A program made the position numbers and the translations under genes. Under the pieces are notes generated by a model. The model searched no databases. It was not told the DNA's origin and saw nothing but the letters and a program-made list of their open reading frames with translations. A DNA stretch of 64,000 nucleotides, taken from contig JAQXEZ010000016.1 of NCBI GenBank assembly GCA_029250605.1, positions 68,272-132,271 on the forward strand, read 5' to 3'. Numbering within the stretch: position 1 is the first letter of the stretch; each line of letters begins with the position of its first letter. Below, in pieces: positions 10,302 to 36,141 of the stretch. The stretch is from Candidatus Thalassarchaeaceae archaeon. Its GTDB lineage: Archaea > Thermoplasmatota > Poseidoniia > Poseidoniales > Thalassarchaeaceae.

Positions 10302-14852
<4,551 letters not shown>

Positions 14853-15703: not shown

Positions 15704-16975
15704 ATGGCCGGAATGGAAGTACTGGTGGTTGGCTCCGGTGGCCGAGAACACGCATTGGCACTGGGTCTTTCTCAGAGTGATTCCGTTTCTTCAGTCCACT
15801 GCACACCTGGAAACGCTGGCACATCGATGGTTGCTACCAATCACGATATCTCGATTTCTGATATCGAGGGAATCGTCAGTCTAGCAAAGGAATTGATGGT
15901 ATCATTGGTTGTTGTTGGTCCCGAGGCACCACTAGTGGATGGACTATCAGATAGGCTAAGACAGGAATCAATACCCAGCTTCGGACCTCATTCCGAGGGG
16001 GCACTCCTAGAGGGGTCCAAGACTCATGCAAAGACGGTCATGGAGTCACTCGGAGTCCCAACAGGGAGGTTCGAGAGGATTGAAGAAATTGACTCAATAG
16101 ATGCCAGCTTGGAATCATTTGAACCTCCATGGGTCATCAAGAGAGACGTACTTGCGGGAGGAAAGGGAGTAACTGTTACCTCCTCAAGAAAAGAGGCGCA
16201 TGAAGCGCTGAGAAATGGGATTGAAACAGATGGTTTTGTCCTCATGGAAGAGCATCTCTCAGGAGAGGAGGCCTCAGTTCTAGTGATCATGGACGAGTCT
16301 GGTTATGTGATGCTTCCAGCAAGCCAGGACCACAAGAGAGTTGGAAACAATGATGAAGGCCCAAACACCGGGGGAATGGGTGCATATGCGCCCGCTCCAG
16401 TCGCAACACCATCAGTATTGGCCAGGACAAGGGAAGAGATAGTAGAACCAATGCACCACCATCTAAGAAATTCGGAGATGCCCTATCGTGGCTGCCTATA
16501 CGTTGGTCTGATGATCGATGAGGATGGAGCTCCGAGTGTTGTTGAGTTCAATGTGAGGCTCGGAGATCCGGAGGCCCAGGTCACTATTCCGTTGTTCCAG
16601 TCAGATTTGGGGCTGGTTCTTCTTGCAGTTGCGCAGGGAAAACTTGCAGACATTGAAGTTGAATTCAAAAAAGTCCACGCTGCAACAGTTGTCCTAGCAG
16701 CAGAGGGATATCCCGGGAATGTTGTTTCGGGTAGGCTGATCGAAGGCTGGGATGCAACAATAGAAGAAGGACAGGTTCTCGGCTTTGTCCATCTTGCCGG
16801 AGCAAACAGGAAGGATTCAGGAGAACTAATCTCAATTGGGGGGCGGGTACTCTCGGCAACTGGAATTGCGCCTACACTTGGCGAGGCATTGGAGGCCTCA
16901 TACCAGATAATTGGGGGGATCGAACTGGACGGCTCCCATTACAGGGAAGACATCGGTTTCCGTGCACTTCCGTGA
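15704..16975 (+). CDS. purD: Phosphoribosylamine-glycine ligase
   Basis: MEVLVVGSGGREHALALGL N-terminus. ATP-grasp region VIKRDVLAGGKGV. GPNTGGMGAYAP and VEFNVRLGDPE motifs. Confidence 0.93.
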   Translation: MAGMEVLVVGSGGREHALALGLSQSDSVSSVHCTPGNAGTSMVATNHDISISDIEGIVSLAKELMVSLVVVGPEAPLVDGLSDRLRQESIPSFGPHSEGALLEGSKTHAKTVMESLGVPTGRFERIEEIDSIDASLESFEPPWVIKRDVLAGGKGVTVTSSRKEAHEALRNGIETDGFVLMEEHLSGEEASVLVIMDESGYVMLPASQDHKRVGNNDEGPNTGGMGAYAPAPVATPSVLARTREEIVEPMHHHLRNSEMPYRGCLYVGLMIDEDGAPSVVEFNVRLGDPEAQVTIPLFQSDLGLVLLAVAQGKLADIEVEFKKVHAATVVLAAEGYPGNVVSGRLIEGWDATIEEGQVLGFVHLAGANRKDSGELISIGGRVLSATGIAPTLGEALEASYQIIGGIELDGSHYREDIGFRALP

Positions 16976-17041
16976 TGAAAAATAGCACCAATCTAGGGGT
17001 TCTCTTTCCAATCCGTTCTACGAACGGTTAAAACAAGCGTT

Positions 17042-20000
17042 TTGGTCGGCGCGATGCTGAGTTATTGGCAAATAGGTCCGGTGGATGGGATGGAACAGGA
17101 GAAAGATACCCTTCAAGTTGTTCAATTCAACAACCTTGCCGCACCCGTTGCTATCACTCTGGCACTACTTGGTTTGACTATCGTCGCCTCCTCTCTGGAA
17201 GGCAGAGAAGTAGACGGCGATTTCCTCTCTACAGCCATCCTGATATCACTATCAGTGTTAATACCAGCATGTATTGGCAGGTCTTCCTGGCTGATTCCTC
17301 TTGATTCCGGAGCCCTACGTGTCGGCGCTATCACTCTCGCGGCATCACTCATAGGAATAATTGCAAATTCAGCAGATCCAGAAAATTTCAACCATATGTT
17401 CGTTGCCACATTCGTCTTTGTTGGATTCGCTTCAGCCGCCTTAAACGAATCAGAACGATTTGAAGAGTCTGCAACCTTCCTCTCAATAGTTCTGGGGGTG
17501 CGTCTTGCGGCATTCTATGCAGGAGGACTCATCATCGCTCAAAGTGACTCTCTTGCTGTGATCGACACCGTCAGGGAATCAATCGGAGCCGCATTCTTCT
17601 CATTCTGGCTCGCTTCAATATCACTCGGTTTCCTTGTGATGGTCGGACTAAGGGGGACAATCGAGAATCGGGGCACAGGGAATCTAATGGCCAATCTTCC
17701 AAACATTAGGGAGAACCCAGAGGTGGGAATTTACGCGTCTCTAGTATTCGCTAGTTTCTTGGTTCCACTAATCTGGATCGGCCAGATTGACTCTCTCCAG
17801 GATTTCTCTCAGCAGAATCACATTGGATTGGCATGGGCATCATTCTCTGTATTAGTGATCTTCATTCATGCATTCTTCAGAGCAGAGGGGTGGCACGTAT
17901 TGGGTGCACTTCTGGCAGTGAACTGGATTCTTTACTCCATTGGCCATATTCATGAGATTGGTAACGAATTACCATCCTTATTCTCCGAGGACGGATTCAT
18001 TGGCTCCTTCACCTGGTTCTTCCTATGGTTCTGGATGAACTTCTTCACACTCTTCTTTGCTTCCAGAGGTGTTTTCGGAGATATCGCCCCTAGAAGGGAG
18101 AGGAGTGGATTCAGAGTCTGGTGGGATGTCAACTCCTACGTAGTGATGGTCACTCTTGCCTTCTTGATAGCACTCATCGTTAGAACCGCATGGAACGTAA
18201 TCCCGGCAATGAATGCGAATGGAACCGGGCTATGGGACATGACCGGTGGTTCTGATCCTTGGTACATGAAGAGAGTAGTGGACTACGTTATTGCTGAGAG
18301 GAGCCATCTGATTTTCGATCATGATAGGGCTTACCCATCCGGGGGGATTAATCCAAGGCCACCACTCTTCTCTTGGTCCCTAGCACTAGGTGGTTTGGCT
18401 CTCTCTTGGATTCTTGAGATTCCAGCCGATCAAGCAGTGTGGTGGTCCATGTCGGCTCTACCAGCAGTCTACGGCGCCCTCATAGTCCTCCCAATTGCTG
18501 GGATAGCCTCACGCGTACACAGCAGGAGAGCGGGCATCATTGCAGCATGGTTGATAGCACTAATGCCGGGTCACATGAGCCGCTCAACATTCGCAATGTC
18601 GGACCACGACTCCTTCGCAATGCTTTTCCTGGCAATAGCATTCTACTACTGGATCAGGGCGATTGGGCATATTGATCACAATAAAATCTTCAAGTCAACT
18701 AGCACAAACCCTCTGTACATTATCGCAGGAATGAGGGAGACGTGGAAGAGGAACCCCTCATTGATGGCAAATGCTTCAATGGCCGGAATCGCTTTCTCAA
18801 TCATGGCCCTTGGGTGGAAAGGATTCGTTTACGGACCGGGAATCCTCTTCCTTGCTTACTCATTCCAAGTTGCGATCAACATTTTCAAAGGAAGGGATAG
18901 CCTTCAATTTACCTCTGCAGCCCTTCAAATGATGCTAGTCGCAATCCTCATTCCGACTCCATTCTATGCCTGGCCGGGAATGAATCTCCTTTTCGCACCC
19001 AGTGGAATGCAGCCTATGTTCTACATAATCGGGTTCACATTCGCGATGGGATGGGTGTCTAGCTCATTCAGGGACAAGCCTTGGCTGTTGGTAGTCCTAG
19101 GGGGGAGCGCCTTATTCGGTTCGATACTCGCTTTGCTATACATTCTCCAAGTTAGAGACCTTTTCAATGGATGGGACATTCTCTTTACCGGCGGTTTTTA
19201 CTTCTCCAAGAACAAGATCTTCGGCACTATCGGTGAGGCGCAAGCTCCCGAGAGGGGCGTTCTTTTCGCATCCTACGGCCCCATAGTGGCTCTAATCGCA
19301 ATAGGTTGCGCATTCTTGCTATTGTGGAGGGGTAGTAGGAAGAACAAGTCAGATCTAACTCTTCTTGGACTCTGGACCATTATCGCCACATACATGGCAT
19401 GGTCAGCCGGCCGTTTCATAATCAACGCCACCCCAGTAATCGCAGTAGTGGGGGGAATCGGGATTTCCATGCTATGGGGAGCAGCAAGTTTACCAGCCTT
19501 CACCAAGGTATGGAGGAACTCTGGGATCGGAACCCCAAGGACCCGTTTCAAGTCTCTATGGCCGGCCACCAAAGCACGTCCAGGAGTTCCAGCCATGGTC
19601 ATGGTTTTGCTCCTCATCACATCTCAACACGCGACTTATGGGATCGATGCTGGAATCCCAAGAGGTGATCAGTCTGCGAACGAAATTGACCAGAGCCTAT
19701 ACGACATCGTCCCGGACATACTGAGGCAAGACTTGCTAGGTCTCTTTTCAGTCATGAATGGCGATACGTACGACCAAAGCGATTCTGGCCTATGGTACAT
19801 GGGTACTTTCGGCCCAAGCTTCAATTCACAGGGCTGGAATGAGGCATATGACTGGCTCTCCCAGCAAGATAGCGAAACACCATTCAGCGATCGTCCCGCC
19901 TTTGTTTCCTGGTGGGACTATGGTTTCCAAGCCTTGGCTTCCGGACAGCATCCCACGGTTGCCGACAACTTCCAGTCTGGAATACCAAACAGTGGGGCAA

Positions 20001-23000
20001 TGTTACTATCAGGAGGCCAGGAAGATACACTTTCTCTGTTCATAACAACCCTGGCGATGGGCGACAAGAGCATCAACAATGGCCAACTCGGTGAATCCTT
20101 CCTATCCGTCCTAGAGGGTCACATGACTCCAGAACAGGTCCAGGAGTTCGAAGCTATCACTTCCAATACCAACAAGGGGTTTGTCCAAGATCGTTTGATG
20201 GCCGTCGTTGCGGAATATGGGAGTGCCGAATTGCTCCAGGGTGAACCCCTGGACAGCAATGGGCTGACATGCTCCGATCCTTGTTTGGATGCCTATGTTG
20301 TATTGGTAAACGGGGAACCATTCGGTGAAGCCACCACCAATTCATCCGAGGCAATGGCACTCTTCGATCAGGCTCGCGGGTCAGAATCCACGTTCGAGTT
20401 GGCAGAATTCGATGACGCAAGTCACTACGATATGGCAGGATACCGATATACCAGAGACATCATCGACGACTACGATGATCTCTCGACCGCGCTCCACAGG
20501 ACCAATGCCAAGTTCGGCTTGGCTCGTGCGTTCCTAATCACGGCCTTCTCGCTCGATGATCTCGTACAGATATATGACGGAATCTCATCAATCGACACGT
20601 ACGAGGTCTCAGATTACGAAGAGTCGCATGGGAGTACAACCTCGAGGAACCACGAGATTCGGTACTTCGCTGTAGATAACCGGCTATATCCACTTGGAGG
20701 GATGTACTACCAGGACTATCAGTCGTACCATAGGGGGCAAACTACTGGAATCTTTCATGCTCCAACTCATCTTTCTGGTCTAGACATCGACTCATACATT
20801 ACAACAACTTACGAAACAAATCAGGGTGATTTTTCCCCTGAGGTGTTCCAAAACATGTACTTGGAGGACCTCAAGGCTCAGGCTTCCGGAGCATCTACTG
20901 GCGAGGACATGATTCAGATGACGGATATGAACTATCAGCATCTGGACAGTTTCTTCGACACGATGATCGCAAGGACATATGTCGGCTATGGGACTTCCAC
21001 GTTGGGGCTTCCATCGATAAGCGGCCAAGTAGGAGATGCCGACACGCCTTCTACTTGGATTCTACCAAACTCGCTTACGGGGACTCCAGGGAGCTATCTA
21101 CAGGGAGCAATGGCACTTCCAGGGGCAATGATGAATCACTTCGTACTATCCAATTGGTACGATCCGACAAATGGTACTTCCTGTGAAGAAATTCAGATTA
21201 CAGGCTCTGCTTCAACAGTAGCGGACAGTTCTCAATTGTCGGAAGTCTCACTCTATTCAGAGGACAGCCTCTCATCAGGATGGTCCCAGATTCAATCAGG
21301 AGGCCCTTGGAAGATGACCCAAGTGGAAGATGGAGTCATCCCCATGAACGCCTCAACTACCAATTATGACCCCGACGAAGAGACGCTCTCAATCAGTTCA
21401 GCAGCTTCATCTTCTGCTAATGATACCGAATTCACCCTAACAGGAAAGGTGGACAAGTACTGCGGCTCGATTTATGACTCCAACAGGAATGTAAAGATCC
21501 TGAAGTACTACAGTGGCGCAACACTACAGGGCACTGTCTCGCTAGAAGGAGTCGGACCAGTGCCCAATGCAAGGATCCTAATCGAGAGAGACGCTTTCAG
21601 CGGAGATGAGTCCGCGGACGAAGAAGGCCATGTCGTAGACAACGACTCCAGAACATACTGGATACCAATTGGGAGTACTCAAGCAGACGAGAATGGCCAC
21701 TTCTCTTTCACCGCTCCAGCTGGAAAAATCCGCGTCTCTGCTTTCACAGGCGATCCAGACTTGGATGCAGCCAGAACATCCCTATTATCAGGTTCTGCCA
21801 ACCTAATGTCAGAACTTTTCTCAGAGACATCCCAGAACCGAGCCGTAAACCCAGTAACTGGAATCCTGGGCAACGTCTACGGGTCAACATGGCTCTCTGA
21901 GACAATAGTGAACATTTCTGGGTCAGATGGACACAGCAATGGACAATCCGTCATTGAGGCCCCAATATCGGTATCCCCATCAACTGCTTCAGGAATACTC
22001 TCATGGTCGGGCGAACTTGATTTCGATGGGGACCCTGTTCTTTCTGCCAACATTACCCTCACTCCTTCTTCAGAAGATGTAGTAATCCAACCCTATGAGG
22101 TCATTACTTCTGATGGGAGCATGGTCGGGGAAGACTTGAGATTCAGTGGTATAGGGGAGGTCACATTCCTGGGGGAGGGAACTATGGAGAGCATGGGAGC
22201 AGTATCTGTTCACGACTTCACTGGTACTCATACTCAAGCTGTATTCGATAACCACAGTATTACTGGAGAAGGGCAATTCTCTGGAAAGGGTATGATCGAT
22301 GGCACACTATCGGGCGAGTTCCCAAATTGCTCTGGAGATTCAGTCCCCGAAGGTTCTGATGCATGCATTAACGAAGAGGGGCACTATCTCTTGGAAGGAA
22401 TAGCAAACGGCTCTGGAAAGTTCACATCACAGGGAGTCAGTGAATTCACCAGGGAACTCTCCCAGGCCACATTCATCGGTTCAGGCAACTTTGCCACAGT
22501 CCCTTCGGATGACCTTGTCACATTTGGGACAATTAATGGAACTGGTACTTTCTCGGGTCACGGATCGTTCAGTGGACCTATGGTACGACCAGGTTCCTTC
22601 CATATCGTCGACGCCCTCCCTGGGGAGTACGTCGTTTCAGTGGATTTCGGAACCGGGGATCCTGTGGAGATTGTGCAACCATTCGTAATCCCTCTGACTT
22701 CTTCTGAGATTCAGACTCCTGTATCTATCACTGGAGGCGCGATCAAGGGAACTGTCTCGATTTTCACAGGTAGGCCATTGTCGAGTGAGGTTTCGATTTT
22801 CTCGATCAATGGCTCTAGTGAGGATTCCAATGAAGAGTGCCAAGGCGTCATCACTCAACCATGTTTCGTCATTCCTGACGAAAGCGGTTCTTTCGAGGTC
22901 GGACCAATAGTCCCAGGCTCTTACATCGCAGAGGTAGATATCGATGACGACGGTTTCCCAGAGCTCTCTCAGGCATTCACGTTCGAATCCGGATTAGCAT

Positions 23001-26000
23001 CTCTAGTGTCCTTCCCTTCTGAAGTACCTCAAACATCCGATATCACATTCACTCTCTCCGATGACGGAATCAGTGTTGATGACCTTCATTTGCAATTTAT
23101 ACCCGAGGATCTTTCCAGAAGTGCAGTCACAGCAATGTTCGACAATGAGTCAAAGACTTACCATGCCGAGTTGAACCCAGGCAATTGGATACTCAATTAC
23201 ACACTTAGCGATGAGAAGCAACTGTGGCAGCGCATATCTATCGGTAGTATTGATGTCAGCGACTCTTTCGAGTTCCTGGTTAGCCAGGTCGTTAGTGGGG
23301 TCGTGATCGACTCAGTTAAGGGGGACGAAATTTCAGATCCACTGTTGTCCAGAGTGACCAACCAGGAGGTTATGTTCCAATGGCAGGGATTCACTCTCAA
23401 ATCCGTAACCGACTCATCTGGAGAATTCAGCGTTATCCTCCCACAAGGTGCCTTTGTCCATGCAACCGTGGAGAGAATGGTCGGAGCAGGTGGATTCTTC
23501 TCCAACGGCACGAGCTTCCAAGTGACAGATTCGATGGAAAATATCACAATCGAACTCACTGAATCAACAATGGTCCTCGGAGAAGTAAGCCTCAATCGTG
23601 AAGGAAACACGTACAACCAAGGATTCTCCGGATGGACTCCCGTATTTGCCAAAGCAAACAACTTGGACGGAACAACAGACGCCGTTTGGAGGGAAGAGGT
23701 GGATGACCTCGGGCGATTCGACATGCTGCTGCCTCTAGGTAACTGGTCTTTCACATTGGAAGCCGGCAGTGAAATGACTGCCAATGCCGTAGTCAAGGAA
23801 ATCAACACAACCTCAGAACCCCTGGTCGAGCTCCTGGTACTTCCAACAAATATTTCTGTGGAGATAGATTTCTTCATCGATCATATGGGCGATAACAACG
23901 CATCCAATGGGACTCCGGTTTCCTATCCATTCGAGATCAAACCACTGTCACCCAATGGTGCAGGTTACACCGTCCCAAGAGAAGGTTCTGAGTGGACCCA
24001 AACAGGTTTGGCAGAACTATCTCTTGAACCGGGAAGGTACCGAATAGTTGTTGAGAGGGCTAACTCTTCTGCAGACGATCCATTCGATACCCTATATGAC
24101 ACAAATGACATCTTCGAAGTTGGGATCGGGTCTTCTACAGTCAAGCGTTCTGTTGGGTTCGAACCAAGATGGTTAGTTAACATCACATTCCGGAATGAGA
24201 GCGGCCAATTACTAGACAACCACGAAGTTAAACTCGAGAACGCCGAAAATGGTTGGATACAAACTTACACAACCAACGAAGATGGTGTGTTGGCCGAGTA
24301 TATTGAAGAGGGGGATTGGATCGTAATTGTAGATGAATTCGAGACAAACTCGGGTGTGTATGAGGGACTGCGAAGGCCGATTTCTGCTACTCAATCGTCG
24401 GCAGGATCCAGATTGAACTTCCAGACAGTCGAACTTGCCTCTGTTACTGTGACTCTCCAATCATCTTCGGATGTGGCAGCACCCGAGTTGGTTGATCTCA
24501 CGATATCTTCACAAGAAGGCCTTGGATCATTCGTAAGTTCGATCGGAGGATTTGATCAACCACTGGAAATAAGGCTGGTACCCGGGTTCTGGAACGTTGA
24601 GATTAACCAGACCAACCAGGACGGAGTCATGACTCTCTTGGAGAATTCTTCGTTGGTTGAAGCCGGTGTAACCGTAGGACCCAATCACCAAGTTTTCCTG
24701 ACCGTACAGAAACTAGTCAGTCTTAGTGGCAAGGTATTCTGGGATCTCGATGATGATGGTGCCCCTGGTTTCTCAGAGGGCCTTTCTAATGCCTCTGTAA
24801 ACATTACCGGAGACCTTGGTTCCCCGACTCATCACTTAATTTCAGATAATGACGGAATCTGGTCCACATTCCTTCCTGTCCAGAGCTCATGGAACATTTC
24901 CGTAGAGAGGGAGGGCTTCGGTACGCAGACTTCTCCAGTCGAAATCGGGGAAACCTCGGTTACCGAAAATATCGAGATTTCAGCTGGCGAGGTTGAAATT
25001 TCCGGCAGCATTTCGTATCCTGACCAGACATGTATTTCCAGCGGCGAGTGGCAAGTTCAGATAATCCCATCCCACGGAATTTCAAGAGACCGCGTCACAG
25101 TATCTGGAAACTCTCTGGGAGAGTGGTCTGCCATGATCCAACCAGGTAGTTGGGTGGCCATGGCAACATCTACATCCGTGACTCCCGAATGCATAGATTT
25201 GATTTCTATCGAACCTCTGGAAGTTGGGGTCGATGGAGCCTCATTAGAATCAGAACTAACAGTTGGGGGAACTCTCAGGCTTGATACCAATTGGTTGGAC
25301 TTCGATGGCAGTGCTCATGATCTTTCCGAGGTTGAGGATTATGACCTAGTCCTAGAATACGGCCCAATTTCATGGTCCGAGGAACTAGGAAGCGATGGTG
25401 TCCTGAATCTGCTAATGATGCCGGGAACGGTACAAGTCTCCAGTAGTTTCGAGTTGGACGAGGGTGTTCGGAACGTGTCCTATTCTGGCGGAAAGGGAAT
25501 TTCTATCAGGGCTGGACAGGTTAGCCCAATGAACACCCTTAGCATCGATAGAGTTTCCAAGCAGAGCGTCTCTGCTACGGTACAAGGGCCTGAAAGAGTG
25601 GAAGTTGTAGAGATTGATGCTACTTGCACCAACGACGATGATGGTGACGGCGTAATCAATGGAGAAGACGTATTCCCGAACGACTCCACGGAGACCGTGG
25701 ATACCGACGGCGACGGGACAGGCGACAACGCCGATGCTGACGACGATGGCGATGGCGATCTTGACGACGTCGACGACTTCCCATTAGGACAAGGGCTGCC
25801 GACAAACTCAGCAGAGGGCTGCAAGTACCAGAACGCTGCGTTCAATGTCTCGGTCGAATACGATGGGCACAACTCCTTCGACGAATACACAATCGTCGGG
25901 ACAGTCCCCAGTGCCGATGGAGTGGATTGGAGTGTCCAGTTCCAAAATTCATCAGGGGAATGGGTGGATTCCTTAACTTTCGACTTGGGCCTGACTGATT

Positions 26001-26971
26001 CAGACCTCACTGAACAAATCAGCGTTCGCGTGGTACCGGCCAATGTGGGTGTTGCACATCACTTCCCAGATGGGCACTTGGTCCTAATCAAGATGTCAAC
26101 CGATCAAGGATATTCAACTCAAGTAGAATTGAGGGTGGATGTTCCAGAATACAACGGCATTGAACTCAATGAACCAGAAAACCTATTCTTCGACAGAGAG
26201 GAGACCACCATTACGATCGTGATCCCATTCCAGAACACTGGAAACTCAGACGAGGTGTTCTACTTTGAGTTCGACAGTTCAGAGTGGTGGCAATTCGCTG
26301 GACCTACAACCCAACCAGTATCCCCATTCTCCGATGGTACCGCCACCTTCACACTAGTCCGCTCCTCCGAACCAGAACTGCCTTCTCCCTATGCCGAAGA
26401 AATCACATTTACTGTTTCGGACCTGGACAACAATACTTACTCGGGCTCAACTGTGGTGGAGACAGACTCCCCAGTTCTCTCTGTCGTGGGAGGTACGGCA
26501 AGGATCCTCGGGGGCAATGGATTCGCTTCTTATGGCCAAATAGAGAGTTATTCCGTTAATATCAACAACAGCGGGAATGTAGATGCTGAGATTGTCACCT
26601 TAGTGGCTACCTTGTGCTCCGACATTGTCTGCGAAAATGAGCTAGGCGTCAACTCCACTTCCAGCGGCTCAGTATCAGCAATGAGCGAATCAACATTCTA
26701 CATCACCATGGACTACACCCAGTTTACCGAGTCCAAGAAATATTGGATAGTATTCTCAATAGAGGGCGAATTGATAGATGGAAAGTCAGAGTCTTGCACC
26801 TCGACGAAGTCAGATGGCAAGGCATCCTGCGTCTTCGAGGCTCAGCTATGGACCAGCTCCGAAGAGAATGACAATCTGAAGTACTTGGCATACGCATTCC
26901 TGATAATGCTAATTGCAGCACTCCTTTACTTTACTAGAAGGCCAGGTAGACGAGTCAGCGCCCCGTTCTAA
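17042..26971 (+). CDS. aglB: Giant (3,309 aa) AglB/STT3-type oligosaccharyltransferase fusion. About 10 extra N-terminal TM segments, STT3 core, then an extracellular extension of more than 2,000 aa and a C-terminal TM anchor.
   Basis: WWDYG at 19910-19924 (residue 957). STT3-like first loop GGSDPWYMKR and FAMSDHDSF. Multiple hydrophobic helices. Downstream modules are CarboxypepD_reg-like (GTVSLEGVGPVPNARILIERD...ENGHFSFTAPAGKIRV), a TSP3 cluster DTDGDGTGDNADADDDGDGDLDD (about 25630-25790) and a CARDB-like region. Terminal TM LAYAFLIMLIAALLYF then RRPGRR. TTG at 17042, ATG at 17054. Confidence 0.85.
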   Translation: MVGAMLSYWQIGPVDGMEQEKDTLQVVQFNNLAAPVAITLALLGLTIVASSLEGREVDGDFLSTAILISLSVLIPACIGRSSWLIPLDSGALRVGAITLAASLIGIIANSADPENFNHMFVATFVFVGFASAALNESERFEESATFLSIVLGVRLAAFYAGGLIIAQSDSLAVIDTVRESIGAAFFSFWLASISLGFLVMVGLRGTIENRGTGNLMANLPNIRENPEVGIYASLVFASFLVPLIWIGQIDSLQDFSQQNHIGLAWASFSVLVIFIHAFFRAEGWHVLGALLAVNWILYSIGHIHEIGNELPSLFSEDGFIGSFTWFFLWFWMNFFTLFFASRGVFGDIAPRRERSGFRVWWDVNSYVVMVTLAFLIALIVRTAWNVIPAMNANGTGLWDMTGGSDPWYMKRVVDYVIAERSHLIFDHDRAYPSGGINPRPPLFSWSLALGGLALSWILEIPADQAVWWSMSALPAVYGALIVLPIAGIASRVHSRRAGIIAAWLIALMPGHMSRSTFAMSDHDSFAMLFLAIAFYYWIRAIGHIDHNKIFKSTSTNPLYIIAGMRETWKRNPSLMANASMAGIAFSIMALGWKGFVYGPGILFLAYSFQVAINIFKGRDSLQFTSAALQMMLVAILIPTPFYAWPGMNLLFAPSGMQPMFYIIGFTFAMGWVSSSFRDKPWLLVVLGGSALFGSILALLYILQVRDLFNGWDILFTGGFYFSKNKIFGTIGEAQAPERGVLFASYGPIVALIAIGCAFLLLWRGSRKNKSDLTLLGLWTIIATYMAWSAGRFIINATPVIAVVGGIGISMLWGAASLPAFTKVWRNSGIGTPRTRFKSLWPATKARPGVPAMVMVLLLITSQHATYGIDAGIPRGDQSANEIDQSLYDIVPDILRQDLLGLFSVMNGDTYDQSDSGLWYMGTFGPSFNSQGWNEAYDWLSQQDSETPFSDRPAFVSWWDYGFQALASGQHPTVADNFQSGIPNSGAMLLSGGQEDTLSLFITTLAMGDKSINNGQLGESFLSVLEGHMTPEQVQEFEAITSNTNKGFVQDRLMAVVAEYGSAELLQGEPLDSNGLTCSDPCLDAYVVLVNGEPFGEATTNSSEAMALFDQARGSESTFELAEFDDASHYDMAGYRYTRDIIDDYDDLSTALHRTNAKFGLARAFLITAFSLDDLVQIYDGISSIDTYEVSDYEESHGSTTSRNHEIRYFAVDNRLYPLGGMYYQDYQSYHRGQTTGIFHAPTHLSGLDIDSYITTTYETNQGDFSPEVFQNMYLEDLKAQASGASTGEDMIQMTDMNYQHLDSFFDTMIARTYVGYGTSTLGLPSISGQVGDADTPSTWILPNSLTGTPGSYLQGAMALPGAMMNHFVLSNWYDPTNGTSCEEIQITGSASTVADSSQLSEVSLYSEDSLSSGWSQIQSGGPWKMTQVEDGVIPMNASTTNYDPDEETLSISSAASSSANDTEFTLTGKVDKYCGSIYDSNRNVKILKYYSGATLQGTVSLEGVGPVPNARILIERDAFSGDESADEEGHVVDNDSRTYWIPIGSTQADENGHFSFTAPAGKIRVSAFTGDPDLDAARTSLLSGSANLMSELFSETSQNRAVNPVTGILGNVYGSTWLSETIVNISGSDGHSNGQSVIEAPISVSPSTASGILSWSGELDFDGDPVLSANITLTPSSEDVVIQPYEVITSDGSMVGEDLRFSGIGEVTFLGEGTMESMGAVSVHDFTGTHTQAVFDNHSITGEGQFSGKGMIDGTLSGEFPNCSGDSVPEGSDACINEEGHYLLEGIANGSGKFTSQGVSEFTRELSQATFIGSGNFATVPSDDLVTFGTINGTGTFSGHGSFSGPMVRPGSFHIVDALPGEYVVSVDFGTGDPVEIVQPFVIPLTSSEIQTPVSITGGAIKGTVSIFTGRPLSSEVSIFSINGSSEDSNEECQGVITQPCFVIPDESGSFEVGPIVPGSYIAEVDIDDDGFPELSQAFTFESGLASLVSFPSEVPQTSDITFTLSDDGISVDDLHLQFIPEDLSRSAVTAMFDNESKTYHAELNPGNWILNYTLSDEKQLWQRISIGSIDVSDSFEFLVSQVVSGVVIDSVKGDEISDPLLSRVTNQEVMFQWQGFTLKSVTDSSGEFSVILPQGAFVHATVERMVGAGGFFSNGTSFQVTDSMENITIELTESTMVLGEVSLNREGNTYNQGFSGWTPVFAKANNLDGTTDAVWREEVDDLGRFDMLLPLGNWSFTLEAGSEMTANAVVKEINTTSEPLVELLVLPTNISVEIDFFIDHMGDNNASNGTPVSYPFEIKPLSPNGAGYTVPREGSEWTQTGLAELSLEPGRYRIVVERANSSADDPFDTLYDTNDIFEVGIGSSTVKRSVGFEPRWLVNITFRNESGQLLDNHEVKLENAENGWIQTYTTNEDGVLAEYIEEGDWIVIVDEFETNSGVYEGLRRPISATQSSAGSRLNFQTVELASVTVTLQSSSDVAAPELVDLTISSQEGLGSFVSSIGGFDQPLEIRLVPGFWNVEINQTNQDGVMTLLENSSLVEAGVTVGPNHQVFLTVQKLVSLSGKVFWDLDDDGAPGFSEGLSNASVNITGDLGSPTHHLISDNDGIWSTFLPVQSSWNISVEREGFGTQTSPVEIGETSVTENIEISAGEVEISGSISYPDQTCISSGEWQVQIIPSHGISRDRVTVSGNSLGEWSAMIQPGSWVAMATSTSVTPECIDLISIEPLEVGVDGASLESELTVGGTLRLDTNWLDFDGSAHDLSEVEDYDLVLEYGPISWSEELGSDGVLNLLMMPGTVQVSSSFELDEGVRNVSYSGGKGISIRAGQVSPMNTLSIDRVSKQSVSATVQGPERVEVVEIDATCTNDDDGDGVINGEDVFPNDSTETVDTDGDGTGDNADADDDGDGDLDDVDDFPLGQGLPTNSAEGCKYQNAAFNVSVEYDGHNSFDEYTIVGTVPSADGVDWSVQFQNSSGEWVDSLTFDLGLTDSDLTEQISVRVVPANVGVAHHFPDGHLVLIKMSTDQGYSTQVELRVDVPEYNGIELNEPENLFFDREETTITIVIPFQNTGNSDEVFYFEFDSSEWWQFAGPTTQPVSPFSDGTATFTLVRSSEPELPSPYAEEITFTVSDLDNNTYSGSTVVETDSPVLSVVGGTARILGGNGFASYGQIESYSVNINNSGNVDAEIVTLVATLCSDIVCENELGVNSTSSGSVSAMSESTFYITMDYTQFTESKKYWIVFSIEGELIDGKSESCTSTKSDGKASCVFEAQLWTSSEENDNLKYLAYAFLIMLIAALLYFTRRPGRRVSAPF

Positions 26972-26977
26972 TACTAC

Positions 26978-28249
26978 TTGCATCAGCACACAATGGGGAC
27001 AAACATGCGTGGAATCTCACGTCTAGAATTGATGCCTGAACCTGGGGATCCTAGTCTACTTACAGCCGTAGACAGTGATGCACCCGGCTATCCAGGAGAG
27101 GCCTATGGCATCAGTGACGAAGAGGCTAGGAAGCTGAGGTGGCTAATGAGGCCACTAATGAGGTTCTTGTGGCCTTGGGGAGCAGTCGGATTCTCCGCAA
27201 TAGTCGTCTCTATTTTGCTCCTTTATCCCTCGATATACTCACTTATTGGCGAGGTTCTTGATTCGGAGTGGGCCTTCGAAGATAGCGGCATCAGGGATCT
27301 ACAGGAATCTGGAAGCCTAGGCGAAGGAGTCAGAGTATGCATGGTTGATACCGGCATAGACATCTCTCATCCAGACCTATCACATCTAACGTTATCCGGA
27401 TTTCGTGACTTCTATACCGAAAAAGACTCTCCCGTCAGAGATATCGGAACAAATAGTCACGGAACTTTGATGGCGGGACTTCTTGCTGCGAATGGCTCAT
27501 TCACCGGTGTTGCCCCAAGCGTTTCACTTTCGATTGCGATTTCTCTCGGACCAGACGGAAAGTCTGCAAACGAGAGGATGGTCTCCCAAGCGATTAGGTG
27601 GTGCCGAATTTCTCAGGACTCCGACATAATTTCTCTAAGTCTGGGAACTGCTCCTGGATCTAGCTTCTCAGATTCATCTGACACCCTTGATGCCGTTAGA
27701 GAGGCATTAGAAGATGGGATTTTCGTAATCGCAGCCGCCGGAAATAGTGACTCAAGGCAGAATCTCTCCGACGTCTCTTCCCCTGCTAGCTTATCTGGTG
27801 TGATTGCAGTTGGGGCACATGATAGAAATGGAGATACGTGGGTTGATAGTGCTGTAGGTGCCAAAAACGATCCAGAAACTGGTGAGGAACGAATATTCCC
27901 CAACCAGAAACCCGAGATCGTAGCTCCCGGTGTCGATCTATGGTCTTGCAGAGACAGTGGTCGTGACCCGCCATACGCATTCTCAACCGGTACCAGCGAT
28001 TCTACGGTATTGGTTACAGGAGCCCTCGCCTTGATCCTCTCAGTGTATCGTGAGGAAATTGCGGGAGAAAACGGAATCATCGACCAACATGAAATGGACT
28101 TAGTCAAGGTAGCGCTTGCAAACTCGGCACGAACCGACTCAAGCCAATCTGAAAGCCACGATTCGAAGAATGGCTATGGGCTCCTTGATGCCAAAGAATG
28201 GTCTAGACAAGTAGAAATTGAATTCGGCATCAACCAAGAAAACATATGA
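26978..28249 (+). CDS. Membrane-anchored subtilisin-like serine protease (peptidase S8)
   Basis: Asp VCMVDTGIDISHPDL, His NSHGTLMAGLLAANG, Ser STGTSDSTVLVTGALALI. N-terminal TM WGAVGFSAIVVSILLLY. Starts 6 nt after the aglB-giant stop (TTG 26978, ATG 26993). Confidence 0.8.
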   Translation: MHQHTMGTNMRGISRLELMPEPGDPSLLTAVDSDAPGYPGEAYGISDEEARKLRWLMRPLMRFLWPWGAVGFSAIVVSILLLYPSIYSLIGEVLDSEWAFEDSGIRDLQESGSLGEGVRVCMVDTGIDISHPDLSHLTLSGFRDFYTEKDSPVRDIGTNSHGTLMAGLLAANGSFTGVAPSVSLSIAISLGPDGKSANERMVSQAIRWCRISQDSDIISLSLGTAPGSSFSDSSDTLDAVREALEDGIFVIAAAGNSDSRQNLSDVSSPASLSGVIAVGAHDRNGDTWVDSAVGAKNDPETGEERIFPNQKPEIVAPGVDLWSCRDSGRDPPYAFSTGTSDSTVLVTGALALILSVYREEIAGENGIIDQHEMDLVKVALANSARTDSSQSESHDSKNGYGLLDAKEWSRQVEIEFGINQENI

Positions 28250-28315
28250 ATTGGCAATAATTGATGAAACTCTTTGTCCCTATGGTTAAATTGTCTAGAT
28301 GTAGTCCGATGCATT

Positions 28316-31300
28316 ATGGCGCGGGAAGAAAAATTGCGGTCATTCTCATTAACAGGACTTTTCTTGTTGAGCATATTACTTTCATTGGCCTTGCCAGCAG
28401 GTACTGTTTCCGCATCAAACGAGACAACAACGGGGACAATTACCGGTACTGAGACTTGGGCAGGCGTACACACCCTTACCGGAGATGTCACGATAGCCCC
28501 CGGTGCAAAATTGATCATTAATCCAGGAGCAACGATTGAGTTCCCCAACGGAACCCATCTGGATGTACGAGGGAGCCTGTGTGCCGGCGTCTCTTCATGT
28601 GGTGCTTCTTCGAACGCTGGGCCTGCCATGGGAATAACCCTGAGATGGAGTGAACCCCTTAATTCGAGTGCTACAGGGGAATGCTATGGGATGAGTTCTG
28701 GCAACCAAGAGATATGGATAGATGACCCTTCATGCAGCGAGGGCGTGCTAATGAGGAGTTCGATAGATCTTTCTGAAACCGGCCTCAGATACGTCACATT
28801 CGATAGTGCTTGGGGGATTCCTCAGTATGTCTCTGCAGTGGGAGAATTCCGCTATGGGGCCCTCGTTCTAGATGGAGCTAGCCCAACTCTTACCGAACTT
28901 TCATTCAATCAAATAAACACCTCCAGTGTCCTGACAACCAACCTCGCTCAACCAACTTTCAGTGGCGGGGAATTCGTCGTAGGGACCGATGCGAGTAAGA
29001 GCATCGTTGGAGCAGCATTGCAGATTTACTCCTCTGGATCCTCAGTAAGCCCATTCTCTCTGTCTGATATTTCTCTCACAGGAACCAATAATGGATGCGG
29101 TAATAGGGATGGGGGAAGGCACACAATTTGGGCCGAGGACTCATTTATCGAGATAGATAACGCCGAAATCTCATCAGGAGATTTTGGAATCGGGCTTTGG
29201 ACATCAGCAGGAAGCGTGACAAACACGCAGATAAATGTGAACTGTAACGCAATCGATCTAAATGGGAAGAAGGCAGTTGGGGGGACTTCATTCGACTTTG
29301 AAATCTCGAACAATGAAATTACTACGGTCGACGGAGCAGGAGTTTTTGCATCAGCCGGGGCCCTAGTGTACTTGGTAGACAACGATATTGGCGGAGCAGC
29401 ATCTGGTTCCGGAATATCTGTTTACAATAGCGAGGCCCACATTCACGAAAACGAAATTGGGCCAATAGGGGGCTACTTTGGATTGTGGCTGGGTGGCTCG
29501 TACGACGTAATCGCTGAGAATAACTCGATTTTCGACACCACCCTAACTCCAGTGGTTGCAGGGATGTACTCATACGCCATTCAAGCAGCCTCTAGGCTAT
29601 ACCTAGCAAACAACTCAATCTCCTATGATGGTACTGGGACCTGCGGCAGTGAAACCAATTGGGGGGGCGAGTTTTCTTGTCCCGTCTTGCATGCATACGT
29701 TACAGGCGTAACCATGTATGATAACATCATCACTGCAGGTGGTACAGCCGATGGGATTCGAGCAGTAGGGTCCCTGTTGGATATTCAGAGAAACTCATTC
29801 GATGTGCAAAAGACTGGTGCTGTGATCAAGAACTATGACAGTGGTTATGCCGAATCACAGCAATTCGGATCACTAGCATACTTCTCTGAAAACGACTGGA
29901 ACCAGGCCGAGACAGTGTACAACGTGACAAAAAGCTCCGTCACTGCCCAGTCAGAGTACATACCCTCTCCTCCCAGCGGGGAATACCCAGTCCGCCTATC
30001 ATGGCCAGACCAGGAGGCCTGGCCAGACAATGAATTCCAGGGTGCGATTATCCCAACGCCAGTAAAGGAATGCAACACTTGCCAGAACATGACGCCGAGG
30101 AACTTCCCATTGGGTGTCAGCATGGATAACAACTCAACGGTATTTACATTTGCAGATTTGACAAACTTGGACTTGTCCAAGGTCAAGATTGCAACACAGC
30201 CAACCCACTTCGCAGTACAGGTCAGCAGAGCCGAACTCGTCCGATTCCAGGCACTAATTGGTGGTGAAAAGGTAAGCGATGCATTGGTCATTGTGGAGGA
30301 TGCACTCGGTAACGACCTGTATCGTGTAAATACTGGTGGCGATGGTTTCACTCCATGGGTCGCCCTCCCATCTAACTTCCACCTCGACTTCAGAGGACTT
30401 GGCGGAGGAGATAACCCGGATGGGTTTGCGGATGATGAGTATGAGGACTCTTGTTCAGACGGGATTGACAACGATGGCGATCTCACCATCGACACCGCAG
30501 ATTCCAGTTGTGATTATTCAGCAGGAACCAGGGAACTATCACTTTACAGATATACTGCCTATAGATTTGGATATGGCTACTACTCCGGACAGTTCACCCT
30601 TGAGGAGAACTCGCTCGAGGAGACTGCACACCTTGAGAATGAAGCTCCAACGGTGATAGTTACCGAGAATGATGGACACTCATTCAGAAGAGTGGTTAAC
30701 ATCACTGGAAACGCTCACGATGGGACATTGGCAAACAGTTATCTGACTGACGAGAGGGCCCAGTGGGACCAAGGTGGCTATGTCCATGCCGTCCAAGTTA
30801 GGAATCCATTCACTGGTTCTTGGGAGGATGCCGAATTGGCGATTGATACTAGCGGTGCAGATGAGGGCGAGGTCACACGCTTCAACAGGCCTTTCAGCTC
30901 TTGGTACTACAATATTGACATGACTGGACTCGCAGGTGAAGGCGATTACACATTCGAATTCAGGGCATTTGATGGGATAGATCACAGCCCTGTGGTTTCA
31001 CGAACAATAAAACTCAATACTCAACCCCCCAGCATTTTCGTTACCACTCCCAGTTCATTCTCATCTCATGATGAAGGTTCGGTAGTCTTCGATGGCTATT
31101 CCCAGGACCCCTATGGATGTCCGGACAATTGCAACACTGACATTGGTCTAGTATACATGCAGATTTCGGGACCAAATTACCAAGTTACTAGCCCAGTTGA
31201 GACTAATTCCGATGGAACTTGGGATTGGGAATGGGACTTCAGCACCCGGCCTAGGGAACTTACGACTTACACCTTCACAATTTGGGCATCTGATTCAGAT

Positions 31301-32578
31301 TTCTGTAATGAAGAAGTGGACGAGTGCCAGCCAGTAATTCTGACCCTAACAATCGATAACAGGAATAGCCAACCCACAATTAGCGTCAATCAGCCATTTT
31401 CAGGAACAAGAATTTCCTCCTCAGTGGATACTGCTCTAACCGGGGTGGCTAGGGATTTCGATGGAGGGGTTACAAGGGTAGATCTGGAAGTAAAGGACGT
31501 ATCAAATGACTATGTTTCAGTTTTCGAGACCAGCACCAGTGAATTTTCTGAAGATGGAATCTGGGAGATTGAGTGGGACACGACACAACTTCGTCATGAT
31601 GCGGAATATCTGCTACGATTCCGCTCGTATGACGGTATTGACTACAGCAGCTGGACCGAAGTAACCATTGTGGCCGACAATCCACCAAATGCAGGCAATA
31701 ATCAACCCGAATTCGATTCATCCGGCTGGCAAAGTGAAATCACTCTTTATTGTGACTCAGAATCAAACTCTGTCGACAAGTGCACCACAGTGGAGATAGA
31801 TATGAAGGAGTATTTCTCCGACGTAGACAACGACATACAGTTCATCTCTGTTTACAACGACACATCAATCGACTCGGACGATAGACACGCTCTTGTCGTC
31901 GGTGTCGGAACAGATGGAATTGCTCGTTACGACCCCGCAGACATGTTGTTTTTCGACGATGACATGGAGTCTTGGACTCTGAATAATGTGATTTTCATAG
32001 CCACCGATGCATGGGATTCTCGAGTCAACTCAAATCCTGTCAACTTCATAGTGGTCTCCCTTCAATTCTCGATTCAGGAGCCCGAGCAGTCTTGGGTCGA
32101 AGAAGATGAAATGGCAATATATTCCGGCATCGGACTTCCCGGTAAGCAAGTTTCTGTTTTGATAGGCGGTAATCCAGTCAACAACACAATCGTTTCTGAG
32201 GACGGAACATGGGAGTTGGGAATACCAGCCTCTAGAATTAAGGGAGACTCATCAATACCAAAATTCACTTATGCAGGCGAAACCACAGAAGTTAGCGCGA
32301 TTAGTAAGGGAGAGCCAACGCCCGAATCAACAAACTGGGGAATGATTGGAGCAGTTTCTGTTTTGGCCATACTGTCACTGGCTGCTCTTGCTTACTTCAC
32401 TGGATTTATAGGGATTGAGATTGATGACGAAGATGAGTACAAGACCCCTGTCCAAATACCGAAGGACTACGGTGACGAGGAAGAAGAGAGTTCTCTGGAG
32501 AGGTATGATGACCACCCCGGTTGGCTTTGGGATGCAGCTTCCGAGGAATGGGTCCCAGATCCGGATTTCCAAGAATAA
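28316..32578 (+). CDS. Surface protein with right-handed parallel beta-helix repeats, three Ig-like modules, C-terminal TM and an acidic Trp-rich tail
   Basis: Signal peptide MAREEKLRSFSLTGLFLLSILLSLALPAGTVSA. Repeated short beta-helix-type turns (IEIDNAEISSGDFGIGLW.., ISNNEITTVDGAGVFA.., VDNDIGGAASGSGISVYNS..). Cys-flanked acidic motif CSDGIDNDGDLTIDTADSSC. Three similar modules ending in ..FRAFDGIDHS.., ..IWASDSD.. and ..FRSYDGIDYS... TM WGMIGAVSVLAILSLAALAYF. Confidence 0.75.
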   Translation: MAREEKLRSFSLTGLFLLSILLSLALPAGTVSASNETTTGTITGTETWAGVHTLTGDVTIAPGAKLIINPGATIEFPNGTHLDVRGSLCAGVSSCGASSNAGPAMGITLRWSEPLNSSATGECYGMSSGNQEIWIDDPSCSEGVLMRSSIDLSETGLRYVTFDSAWGIPQYVSAVGEFRYGALVLDGASPTLTELSFNQINTSSVLTTNLAQPTFSGGEFVVGTDASKSIVGAALQIYSSGSSVSPFSLSDISLTGTNNGCGNRDGGRHTIWAEDSFIEIDNAEISSGDFGIGLWTSAGSVTNTQINVNCNAIDLNGKKAVGGTSFDFEISNNEITTVDGAGVFASAGALVYLVDNDIGGAASGSGISVYNSEAHIHENEIGPIGGYFGLWLGGSYDVIAENNSIFDTTLTPVVAGMYSYAIQAASRLYLANNSISYDGTGTCGSETNWGGEFSCPVLHAYVTGVTMYDNIITAGGTADGIRAVGSLLDIQRNSFDVQKTGAVIKNYDSGYAESQQFGSLAYFSENDWNQAETVYNVTKSSVTAQSEYIPSPPSGEYPVRLSWPDQEAWPDNEFQGAIIPTPVKECNTCQNMTPRNFPLGVSMDNNSTVFTFADLTNLDLSKVKIATQPTHFAVQVSRAELVRFQALIGGEKVSDALVIVEDALGNDLYRVNTGGDGFTPWVALPSNFHLDFRGLGGGDNPDGFADDEYEDSCSDGIDNDGDLTIDTADSSCDYSAGTRELSLYRYTAYRFGYGYYSGQFTLEENSLEETAHLENEAPTVIVTENDGHSFRRVVNITGNAHDGTLANSYLTDERAQWDQGGYVHAVQVRNPFTGSWEDAELAIDTSGADEGEVTRFNRPFSSWYYNIDMTGLAGEGDYTFEFRAFDGIDHSPVVSRTIKLNTQPPSIFVTTPSSFSSHDEGSVVFDGYSQDPYGCPDNCNTDIGLVYMQISGPNYQVTSPVETNSDGTWDWEWDFSTRPRELTTYTFTIWASDSDFCNEEVDECQPVILTLTIDNRNSQPTISVNQPFSGTRISSSVDTALTGVARDFDGGVTRVDLEVKDVSNDYVSVFETSTSEFSEDGIWEIEWDTTQLRHDAEYLLRFRSYDGIDYSSWTEVTIVADNPPNAGNNQPEFDSSGWQSEITLYCDSESNSVDKCTTVEIDMKEYFSDVDNDIQFISVYNDTSIDSDDRHALVVGVGTDGIARYDPADMLFFDDDMESWTLNNVIFIATDAWDSRVNSNPVNFIVVSLQFSIQEPEQSWVEEDEMAIYSGIGLPGKQVSVLIGGNPVNNTIVSEDGTWELGIPASRIKGDSSIPKFTYAGETTEVSAISKGEPTPESTNWGMIGAVSVLAILSLAALAYFTGFIGIEIDDEDEYKTPVQIPKDYGDEEEESSLERYDDHPGWLWDAASEEWVPDPDFQE

Positions 32579-32602
32579 TGTATATTCCAAGTTCTACTAA
32601 CA

Positions 32603-32612
32603 TTTGTATATT
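32603..32612 (+). promoter_or_regulatory. TATA-like element TTTGTATATT about 22-31 nt upstream of the 32634 ATG (suggests a leaderless or short-leader transcript)
   Basis: An AT-rich box at the position expected for an archaeal TATA box relative to the start codon. A second TGTATATT copy lies at 32579-32586. Confidence 0.3.
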
Positions 32613-32633
32613 GAGTGAGATAGTGTTGGGTAT

Positions 32634-35969: not shown

Positions 35970-36141
35970 TGATTCACGTGCGGTTACAGACGACCTTTCA
36001 ACAAATCCATGCCCATAGGCCAATATTTGCTATTTTCAAACACCAGAAACCATTCTAGGCCCTTCTAACGACATATGTCCGAACGACGCTCCATCACCAT
36101 GATAAATCTCTGAACCCGGGATTTTGCATAGAGGTGGGCGG

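Follow-up and report, generated by a model that had tools for sequence, protein, structure and literature searches.

The 64,000-nucleotide stretch of DNA analysed here (the window; contig JAQXEZ010000016.1 of a Candidatus Thalassarchaeaceae archaeon) comes from a member of the Poseidoniales (Marine Group II, MGII). It carries a run of genes for a giant AglB/STT3 oligosaccharyltransferase, a membrane-tethered S8 protease and an anchored beta-helix surface protein, followed by a gene for a STAND-type regulator. Homologs of the protease were recovered from marine metagenomes and from metagenome-assembled genomes named Poseidoniales, Thalassarchaeaceae or Marine Group II, and the two nearest genomes by protease homology were 96% and 94% identical. 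An open-reading-frame (ORF) scan placed long + strand ORFs at 17042-26971, 26978-28249 and 28274-32578. The trio of long co-directional ORFs reported in the initial annotation of this DNA therefore stands, as do its domains (STT3/AglB, Peptidase_S8, and Beta_helix plus Big_7); its starts, its gaps, the lack of a promoter between the genes and the sequon claim do not. With the starts argued for below, the genes of the locus are as follows (lengths in amino acids, aa; HTH, helix-turn-helix; Ig, immunoglobulin-like):

15704-16975, upstream flank of AglB: purD, from the profile search
17090-26971, + strand: AglB/STT3 giant, 3293 aa
27005-28249, + strand: S8 subtilase, 414 aa
28316-32578, + strand: beta-helix/Ig surface protein, 1420 aa
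32634-35162, + strand: HTH-STAND-TPR regulator, 842 aa, with Pfam and NCBIfam matches

All three TTG starts given previously are probably wrong, and ATG codons at 17090, 27005 and 28316 are proposed instead. The AglB ATG at 17090 is the sole start conserved in relatives across the order and is preceded by a Shine-Dalgarno (SD)-like GGTGGA/GAGGGA element; TTG 17042 lies merely 8 nt past the AglB TATA box at 17026-17033. The S8 orthologs are 410-414 aa long, and their alignment begins at the invariant M10 of the TTG-started ORF, with no conservation upstream of it; the protease is therefore taken to start at ATG 27005, 33 nt past the AglB stop. The beta-helix gene is placed at ATG 28316 because this codon is conserved and because a TTG-extended ORF would engulf the conserved TATA box at 28286-28291. 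The gaps thus become 33 and 66 nt, not 6 and 25 nt, and the proposed contrast between tight gaps inside the trio and a looser junction with the next gene is lost, the regulator gene following after 55 nt. As in an operon, the genes of the window share a strand and lie close together; the corresponding gaps in relatives of the MGIIb clade are 28-82 nt (AglB/S8) and 48-117 nt (S8/beta-helix). Rfam (gathering thresholds) and tRNA scans of the window gave no matches, and bacterial-type promoter and terminator scans gave matches no commoner than in shuffled sequences, none of them at gene junctions.

Gene order was compared in 10 kb flanks of the S8 ortholog taken from 80 species-representative genomes (S8 54-96% identical) and in the flanks of 80 metagenome loci found with distant orthologs, 73 of which belong to a distant clade that is probably MGIIa (S8 37-48% identical). 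The order purD, AglB, S8, beta-helix gene, regulator was kept in every locus with enough flank. The C-terminal part of AglB lay directly upstream of S8 in 74/74 species genomes; in the distant clade this part is too diverged to be scored reliably. The STT3 core was upstream of S8 in 55/55 species genomes and in 41/41 loci of the distant clade. The beta-helix gene followed S8 in all 77 species genomes and in 63 of 66 distant loci, and the regulator followed the beta-helix gene in 63/63 and 43/45, respectively. Moreover, purD was present wherever the flank extends to its position. The two genes past the regulator, which encode a metallo-beta-lactamase-fold protein and a 1909-aa TSP3 protein, were found in 61/61 species genomes and in 0/36 loci of the distant clade. 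The conserved block is thus purD-AglB-S8-beta-helix-regulator, with its right edge past the regulator. The expectation that the gene order would be conserved in relatives was borne out throughout the Poseidoniales, yet it does not discriminate: purD and the STAND regulator are conserved just as strictly as the trio, which weakens the argument that the trio forms a specific unit.

The following promoter-like elements were recognized in and around the block (BRE, B recognition element):

28278-28293, + strand: BRE/TATA CCCTATGGTTAAATTG in the S8/beta-helix spacer
28261-28270, + strand: TTGATGAAAC box, the MGIIb form of TGATAY, just upstream of the beta-helix TATA; a single related box is kept in MGIIb
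17013-17027, + strand: palindrome CCGTTCTACGAACGG, overlapping the TATA box GGTTAAAA (17026-17033), whose GGTTAWAW element is conserved upstream of AglB in relatives
17034-17089, + strand: AglB leader GGTCGGCGCGATGCT, with a small hairpin and SD-like GGTGGA before ATG 17090; 55 distinct leaders of both clades aligned
26966-26977, + strand: TTCTAATACTAC box over the AglB stop codon; 34-44 nt before the S8 ATG in 31/51 MGIIb loci
32597-32617, + strand: box CTAACATT(TGTAT)ATTGAGTG before the regulator gene; core of AACATTATTGA type 32-35 nt before the ATG in 44/65 loci

In the window the hexamer TTAWAW is some 10-fold rarer than expected (16 occurrences on both strands versus 167 +/- 15), which is consistent with selection against spurious TATA boxes. 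Counting both strands, the 64 kb contain just two copies of its extended form GGTTAWAW, one ahead of AglB (17026) and one ahead of the beta-helix gene (28284). Across relatives, TTAWAW stands at -28 to -30 of the beta-helix gene in 63/63 MGIIb loci, versus 1/51 for S8 and 1/65 for the regulator, and the cross-species footprint upstream of the beta-helix gene includes a box CCCTATGGTTAAAT 28-45 nt before the ATG. The earlier remark that no promoter-like AT-rich box lies between the genes is therefore contradicted by CCCTATGGTTAAATTG in the S8/beta-helix spacer. Because the TATA box lies only 28-30 nt before the ATG, the beta-helix mRNA is predicted to be leaderless, with transcription starting at or beside 28316.

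In the distant clade the S8/beta-helix spacer is 110-263 nt long and holds an ordered array of TGATAY(T)WT direct repeats (loci L081-L160; for example L098 11204-11358 and L082 1217-1406). Four TGATAY boxes were found in 42 of 71 such loci, spaced 19 nt within pairs, with the pairs phased 42 or 52 nt apart, and in 54 of 56 loci the distance from the last box to a TATA-like CAGTRTTATAT or TGTGTTAAG is 28-29 nt. The spacer is enriched about 20-fold in TGATAY, and of the 100 box pairs spaced by 19 nt in 2.7 Mb almost all fall within it; no TGATAY array precedes AglB. The array is a candidate operator for the adjacent STAND regulator. The lack of an internal promoter that an operon would show is thus not what was found, given a TATA box conserved in every MGIIb locus scored and an operator-like array in the distant clade.

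The AglB promoter has a different build. The perfect palindrome at its TATA box could be a purD terminator hairpin or a regulator site; in the O1 clade a different palindrome, CGCTACTACGTAGCG, occupies the same spot (L067 234-248) as CCGTTCTACGAACGG in the window. Throughout the order (L016-L151) the AglB leader, about 55-70 nt long, is conserved as a block GGTCGCCGCGAYGCT or GTGGCGAAGACGCT, a 4-7 bp hairpin and an SD-like GAGGGA/GGTGA. Compensatory stem variants occur in several lineages (CAGCC/GGCTG, TAGCC/GGCTA, CAGTC/GACTG, CTGC/GCAG). The stem score of 4.5 versus 3.65 +/- 1.16 in shuffled leaders is a modest excess and statistically weak, and RNAalifold gave no consensus structure for the leader alignment; the idea of an RNA element in the leader was therefore dropped.

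For S8 itself, the TTCTAATACTAC box is a possible, weak candidate promoter. Its conservation does not reflect coding constraint alone, because the box is duplicated past the AglB stop in three lineages (L019, L024 and L030), and many distant lineages carry CATTATAY or ATTAAATG, TATA-like, at the matching site before S8. A subclade-specific box AGACATAT(C/A)TTCAAGC was also seen before S8 in the distant clade. Furthermore, the MGIIa AglB/S8 spacers (for example L093 9893-9988) contain hairpins followed by a short T-run, such as CCCTCTAAAGGGGTTAGTTTTG, and AglB RNA contigs end in this spacer. Beyond the block, the divergent spacer before the gene for the 1909-aa TSP3-repeat protein holds an element of about 33 nt, TGTCCGAACGACGCTCCATCACCATGATAAATC (36076-36108), which hardly varies among all MGIIb loci, even those whose flanking proteins share no more than about 50% identity; a TATA box ATGATAAAT and, upstream of it, a site under tight constraint probably make up this element.

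Transcription was judged from assembled metatranscriptome contigs of related strains, whose depth is approximate. For the window's own strain the contigs are thin and diverged, and all genes were found to be transcribed. The best view came from L067, an MGIIb-O1 relative that is well covered in four metatranscriptomes from different studies (runs X4-X7). In run X4 the depth was 30-38 over AglB, fell from 16 through 12 to 3 across S8 and to about 0.5 in the following spacer, and rose to 24-31 over the beta-helix gene; it was 7-12 over the regulator, 2-4 over the opposite-strand gene and about 30 over the next giant gene. Runs X5, X6 and X7 gave the same shape, so that in all four MGIIb runs a drop across S8 was followed by a rise of 2- to 6-fold or more at the beta-helix start. 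Contigs of L067 span the AglB/S8 junction in 4/4 runs and the beta-helix/regulator junction in three. Other L067 contigs begin at 11366, 11368 and 11382, that is 10-26 nt past the beta-helix ATG (11353/11356). In the MGIIa relative L093, AglB contigs end at 9967 and 9996, within the AglB/S8 spacer, S8 depth is 0-2.6, no contig spans the S8/beta-helix spacer, and beta-helix contigs begin at 11420 and 11456, the ATG being at 11398. Over the relatives, beta-helix contigs were scored as starting 10-30 nt past the ATG, together with the rise in depth. In addition, AglB contigs of relatives begin 35-65 nt past the homologous TATA box.

The continuous transcript that the initial annotation proposed to look for was thus seen, in the contigs of relatives, from AglB into S8 in MGIIb-O1, where it decays. 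From S8 to the beta-helix gene a dip and a step up were seen instead, and in the MGIIa relative the AglB contigs stop before S8. Independent transcription starts had been named as what would speak against the proposal, and for the beta-helix gene such a start is indicated.

AglB belongs to the STT3 family, with a PF02516 match of 40.4 bits (cut-off 24.5) at residues 403-638, and it matched the PDB AglB entry 3WAJ at E 1e-8. The archaeosortase-A-associated AglB subfamily TIGR04154 does not include it (165.4 bits versus a cut-off of 450). About 14 transmembrane (TM) helices are predicted in the first 800 residues, about eight of them before the region that matches known AglB, and the STT3 core spans residues 350-990 approximately. 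STT3/AglB enzymes are recognized by DxD-type, TIXE-type, WWDYG and DK-type motifs. The giant looks catalytically complete, because SDHD (DxD-type), GTIGE (TIXE-type), WWDYG at 941 and GDKS (DK-type) can all be read in its sequence. The core is followed by an extracellular region of about 2300 aa of beta-sandwich and TSP3-like type, and then by a C-terminal TM helix and a short basic tail (26930-26968) whose terminal Phe is invariant. CarboxypepD_reg-like beta-sandwich domains were also found in the giant by profile search. Identity of this stalk to the distant clade is about 25%. The STT3 ORF is 3162-3326 aa long in 83 of 86 complete relatives and stops 7-134 nt before S8. The giant is enriched in N-X-S/T sequons (41 versus 25.6 +/- 4.5 expected from composition). 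It is the single STT3 ORF seen in the sequence examined, and its length is constrained at about 3190 aa; it would be the cell's general N-glycosylation enzyme, not one dedicated to the neighbouring protein. An Asp-rich, TSP3-like calcium-binding repeat in the stalk (25633-25756) draws many unrelated loose-ended RNA contigs, and the depth spike of 56x at this place in run X2 is artificial and not to be taken as expression. A metatranscriptome study listed an oligosaccharyltransferase among the genes enriched during genus O1 activity (PMC9723583). A search of the available literature library found no description of a giant AglB form in the Poseidoniales, of AglB/STT3 linked to the Poseidoniales, or of this locus.

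The protease is a member of the S8 family by profile (PF00082 Peptidase_S8, 135 bits), catalytic triad and fold. D115, H152 and S331 (numbered from M10) and the oxyanion Asn are invariant in sets of 12 and 13 orthologs. Its topology is type II, with a cytoplasmic N-tail, one TM helix (about 63-81) and a mature-type catalytic domain; an I9 propeptide is absent, there being no room for one. The conserved N-tail (27005-27170) carries LELMPEPxDPxLLTAVD, written more loosely as LExxPEPxDPxxLxAVD, a predicted beta-hairpin. In the AlphaFold2 model (pLDDT 82), Foldseek gave a TM-score of 0.88 at about 30% identity to subtilisin BPN'/Carlsberg; these and the intracellular subtilisins are nearest by both structure and sequence. 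Full-length orthologs were found down to about 41% identity in the representative search, all sharing the N-terminal motif, and the same search returned no member of the subfamily outside the Poseidoniales. The next S8 family, P0135, was rejected as an out-group, being a paralog in the same organisms with an unrelated context. This paralogous membrane-anchored family (L161 8001-9323; L162 8001-9173) always adjoins an aminotransferase gene with no STT3 nearby, so that linkage to AglB is specific to the S8 subfamily described here.

The beta-helix protein passes the cut-off of PF13229 Beta_helix (29.4 bits, or 38.7 on the segment, versus 25.9) and also matches the Ig-like Big_7 domain. It is built as a type I membrane protein: a signal/anchor helix leads into a right-handed beta-helix (about 30-560) and then Ig-like domains, and a TM helix at 1343-1361 is followed by an acidic cytoplasmic tail. 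In its AlphaFold2 model (mean pLDDT 77), the region of about 30-560 is mostly at 80-97. A homolog search with the protein returned just 17 fragments, and a PDB sequence search gave no match. The fold class is clear from the model; the label adhesin is a candidate one, suggested by the architecture of a surface-exposed beta-helix, Ig-like domains and a TM anchor. The order-conserved last 25 residues of the tail (32440-32575) read HPGWLWD....EWVPDPDF, with variants HPGW(L/I)WD....(E/Q)WVPDP(D/N)(F/Y). The conserved cytoplasmic tails of AglB, S8 and the beta-helix protein suggest cytoplasmic partners. A 'P-[DE]-P' tail motif shared by S8 and the beta-helix protein was dropped as a common docking signal, being too short and too variable.

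The description of the beta-helix protein as heavily sequon-laden did not hold up, since it has 13 N-X-S/T sequons versus 14.2 +/- 3.2 expected from composition. A better candidate for a heavy N-glycoprotein lies elsewhere in the window:

283-7017, + strand: transglutaminase-like giant with DUF4129, 2244 aa, 59 sequons versus 20.2 +/- 4.3 expected

The regulator is of the STAND type, with matches to AAA_16 (37.7 versus a cut-off of 32.6) and TPR_12 (64.8 versus 30.1). Its HTH_Crp_2 match is weak and under the cut-off (18.8 bits), and the MalT and AfsR models matched far below their cut-offs.

Taken together, these data lead us to lean, though only by a little, towards an order-wide conserved Poseidoniales envelope neighbourhood that is arranged in two adjacent transcription units and not in one operon. 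In the first unit, a strong TATA promoter and a conserved leader would drive the giant AglB, and S8 would be a low-abundance, N-terminally anchored subtilisin made by read-through from AglB in MGIIb and only weakly transcribed in MGIIa. In the second, the beta-helix/Ig gene would be transcribed into a leaderless mRNA from a canonical TATA box of its own, with read-through into the HTH-STAND-TPR regulator and with one (MGIIb) to four (MGIIa) phased TGATAY boxes ahead of the promoter. Given the MalT pattern and an adjacency conserved in both clades, the STAND regulator may bind the TGATAY boxes and, as MalT does, turn the surface protein on or off. The tethered protease, for its part, might trim or shed an ectodomain encoded by a neighbour, be it the stalk of AglB or the beta-helix protein. 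That the genes are functionally linked is plausible. The initial annotation had read the trio as one functional unit for glycosylation, maturation and display; of this, the identities of the gene products (an oligosaccharyltransferase giant, a membrane-tethered S8 and an anchored beta-helix protein) remain, and the single operon falls.

Several points weigh against the arrangement in two units. The RNA contigs are unstranded, derive from related strains and have unmapped 5' ends; some DNA carry-over may contribute to them, though the uneven depth profile argues for RNA. Some of the thin contigs of the window's own strain cross both junctions, indicating low-level read-through from S8 to the beta-helix gene, and the corresponding spacer of L067 is crossed by one weak contig alone (X6, depth 4). 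Moreover, the beta-helix protein is without sequon enrichment, and purD is kept in the block without a plausible functional tie, so that adjacency can persist without shared function. Finally, we infer both the link between regulator and boxes and that between protease and substrate.

The persistence of purD, a purine biosynthesis gene, leads directly to the alternative that survives best, namely that the genes are neighbours only, held together by little rearrangement in this part of Poseidoniales genomes and sharing no function. A promoter-like element before each gene, expression levels that differ widely and a wider window in which housekeeping genes are mixed with large surface proteins all fit this explanation. 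It is nevertheless unlikely, for the block survives family-level divergence (S8 at 37-48% identity, the AglB stalk at about 25%) while synteny ends past the regulator (0/36), this S8 subfamily was found at this position only with its paralog elsewhere, and each of the three products is an envelope protein with a conserved cytoplasmic tail.

The second alternative is substrate acquisition, in which the tethered subtilisin and a polysaccharide-type beta-helix would act on external polymers or particles under MalT-like induction, the adjacency to AglB being incidental. The S8 domain is nearest to broad-specificity subtilisins (TM-score 0.88), and a STAND regulator with repeated upstream boxes is the MalT pattern of inducible catabolic genes. 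The top fold matches of the beta-helix are alginate epimerases/lyases, GH87, GH28 and tailspikes; NosD and the PfbA adhesin also occur among its matches. A subtilase has also been reported among the highly transcribed Poseidoniales genes (PMC9723583). Against this, in seven runs the present S8 showed the lowest expression of all genes in the block, and the RNA profiles show that the protease and the beta-helix gene are not co-regulated. The Foldseek matches of the beta-helix, of probability about 1.0, are weak and generic (E about 1e-4, TM-score at most 0.38, identity 8-13%), and catalytic residues were not recognized in the protein. Substrate acquisition is accordingly regarded as doubtful.

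Least probable of all is a single AglB-S8-beta-helix operon serving one pathway, in which the oligosaccharyltransferase glycosylates, the protease matures and the beta-helix protein is displayed: the genes are co-directional with short gaps, a strictly kept order and no hairpin plus T-run terminators at the window junctions, and the AglB/S8 junction is bridged by RNA contigs in six runs, the S8/beta-helix junction by a few weak ones. However, the conserved TATA box and operator boxes belong to the beta-helix gene itself, and RNA depth dips in the spacer and rises where this gene begins. In MGIIa the AglB transcripts end ahead of S8, and a TATA-like box precedes S8 in many lineages of that clade. 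Sequons are not in excess in the beta-helix protein, and AglB, the only STT3 ORF seen in the sequence examined and constrained in length, looks like a general enzyme.

The two-unit arrangement can also be carried a step further. AglB may represent a novel sort of oligosaccharyltransferase, one that serves as a major envelope structure in its own right, with its 2300-aa stalk and anchors at both ends; the subtilisin would process this stalk, and the STAND regulator would respond to a signal from the cytoplasm or the envelope by switching the leaderless surface-protein gene through the four-box TGATAY operator. This combination as a whole is improbable; if true, it would amount to an archaeal circuit for envelope remodelling that has not been described before, in a group that ranks among the most abundant archaea of the surface ocean. 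The Poseidoniales belong to the commonest archaea of the plankton, and because no member has ever been brought into culture, their cell envelope is essentially unknown. The locus offers a concrete, order-wide envelope set, comprising a very large oligosaccharyltransferase, a tethered-protease subfamily, a regulated beta-helix protein, and a candidate regulator with its candidate operator. Furthermore, what is seen of promoters in the Poseidoniales, namely a strongly counter-selected TATA box of the form TTAWAW and mRNAs with and without leaders, helps promoter and gene-start annotation, and the locus teaches that in archaea tight co-directional spacing is no proof of an operon.

Comparison with known systems gives partial likenesses throughout. 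Among archaea, the archaeosortase ArtA/PGF-CTERM system of S-layer maturation is the known case of a surface protein whose glycosylation is coupled to its proteolytic processing and anchoring. A coupling of this sort at the present locus would resemble it; the locus differs in that it has no PGF-CTERM signal or archaeosortase, uses another protease class, and encodes surface proteins that keep TM anchors and cytoplasmic tails. In Haloferax and Methanococcus, aglB likewise sits in a conserved neighbourhood with cell-surface-related genes; here, however, it stands among purD and the genes of a protease, a surface protein and a regulator, and no glycosyltransferase, flippase or sugar-biosynthesis genes flank it. 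Mycosin (MycP) of type VII secretion gave the best NCBIfam match to the protease and shares with it the membrane tether, the lack of a classical I9 propeptide and an envelope-related locus. Identity with mycosin was rejected (TIGR03921, 115 bits versus a cut-off of 279), because the anchor, the only TM helix, is N-terminal (type II) in the window protein and C-terminal in mycosin, and because the window contains no type VII secretion genes. The regulator resembles the STAND activators MalT and AfsR in combining an HTH, a STAND NTPase and a TPR sensor, and in having beside it a promoter preceded by direct repeats that are phased and keep a constant distance to the core promoter; its HTH is N-terminal and winged-helix-like, unlike the C-terminal LuxR type, and the promoter is an archaeal TATA promoter. 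AglB/STT3 enzymes are usually 500-1000 aa long. With archaeal members such as Archaeoglobus fulgidus AglB-L (PDB 3WAJ), the AglB of the window shares the STT3 membrane core and the SDHD, TIGE, WWDYG and DK-type motifs, and it departs from them in its length of about 3300 aa, some eight extra N-terminal TM helices, an extracellular multi-domain stalk of about 2300 aa and a second, C-terminal anchor. The giant double-anchored AglB, the dedicated S8 subfamily and the operator array with its candidate STAND regulator are new as variants of known things, not as a new kind of system.

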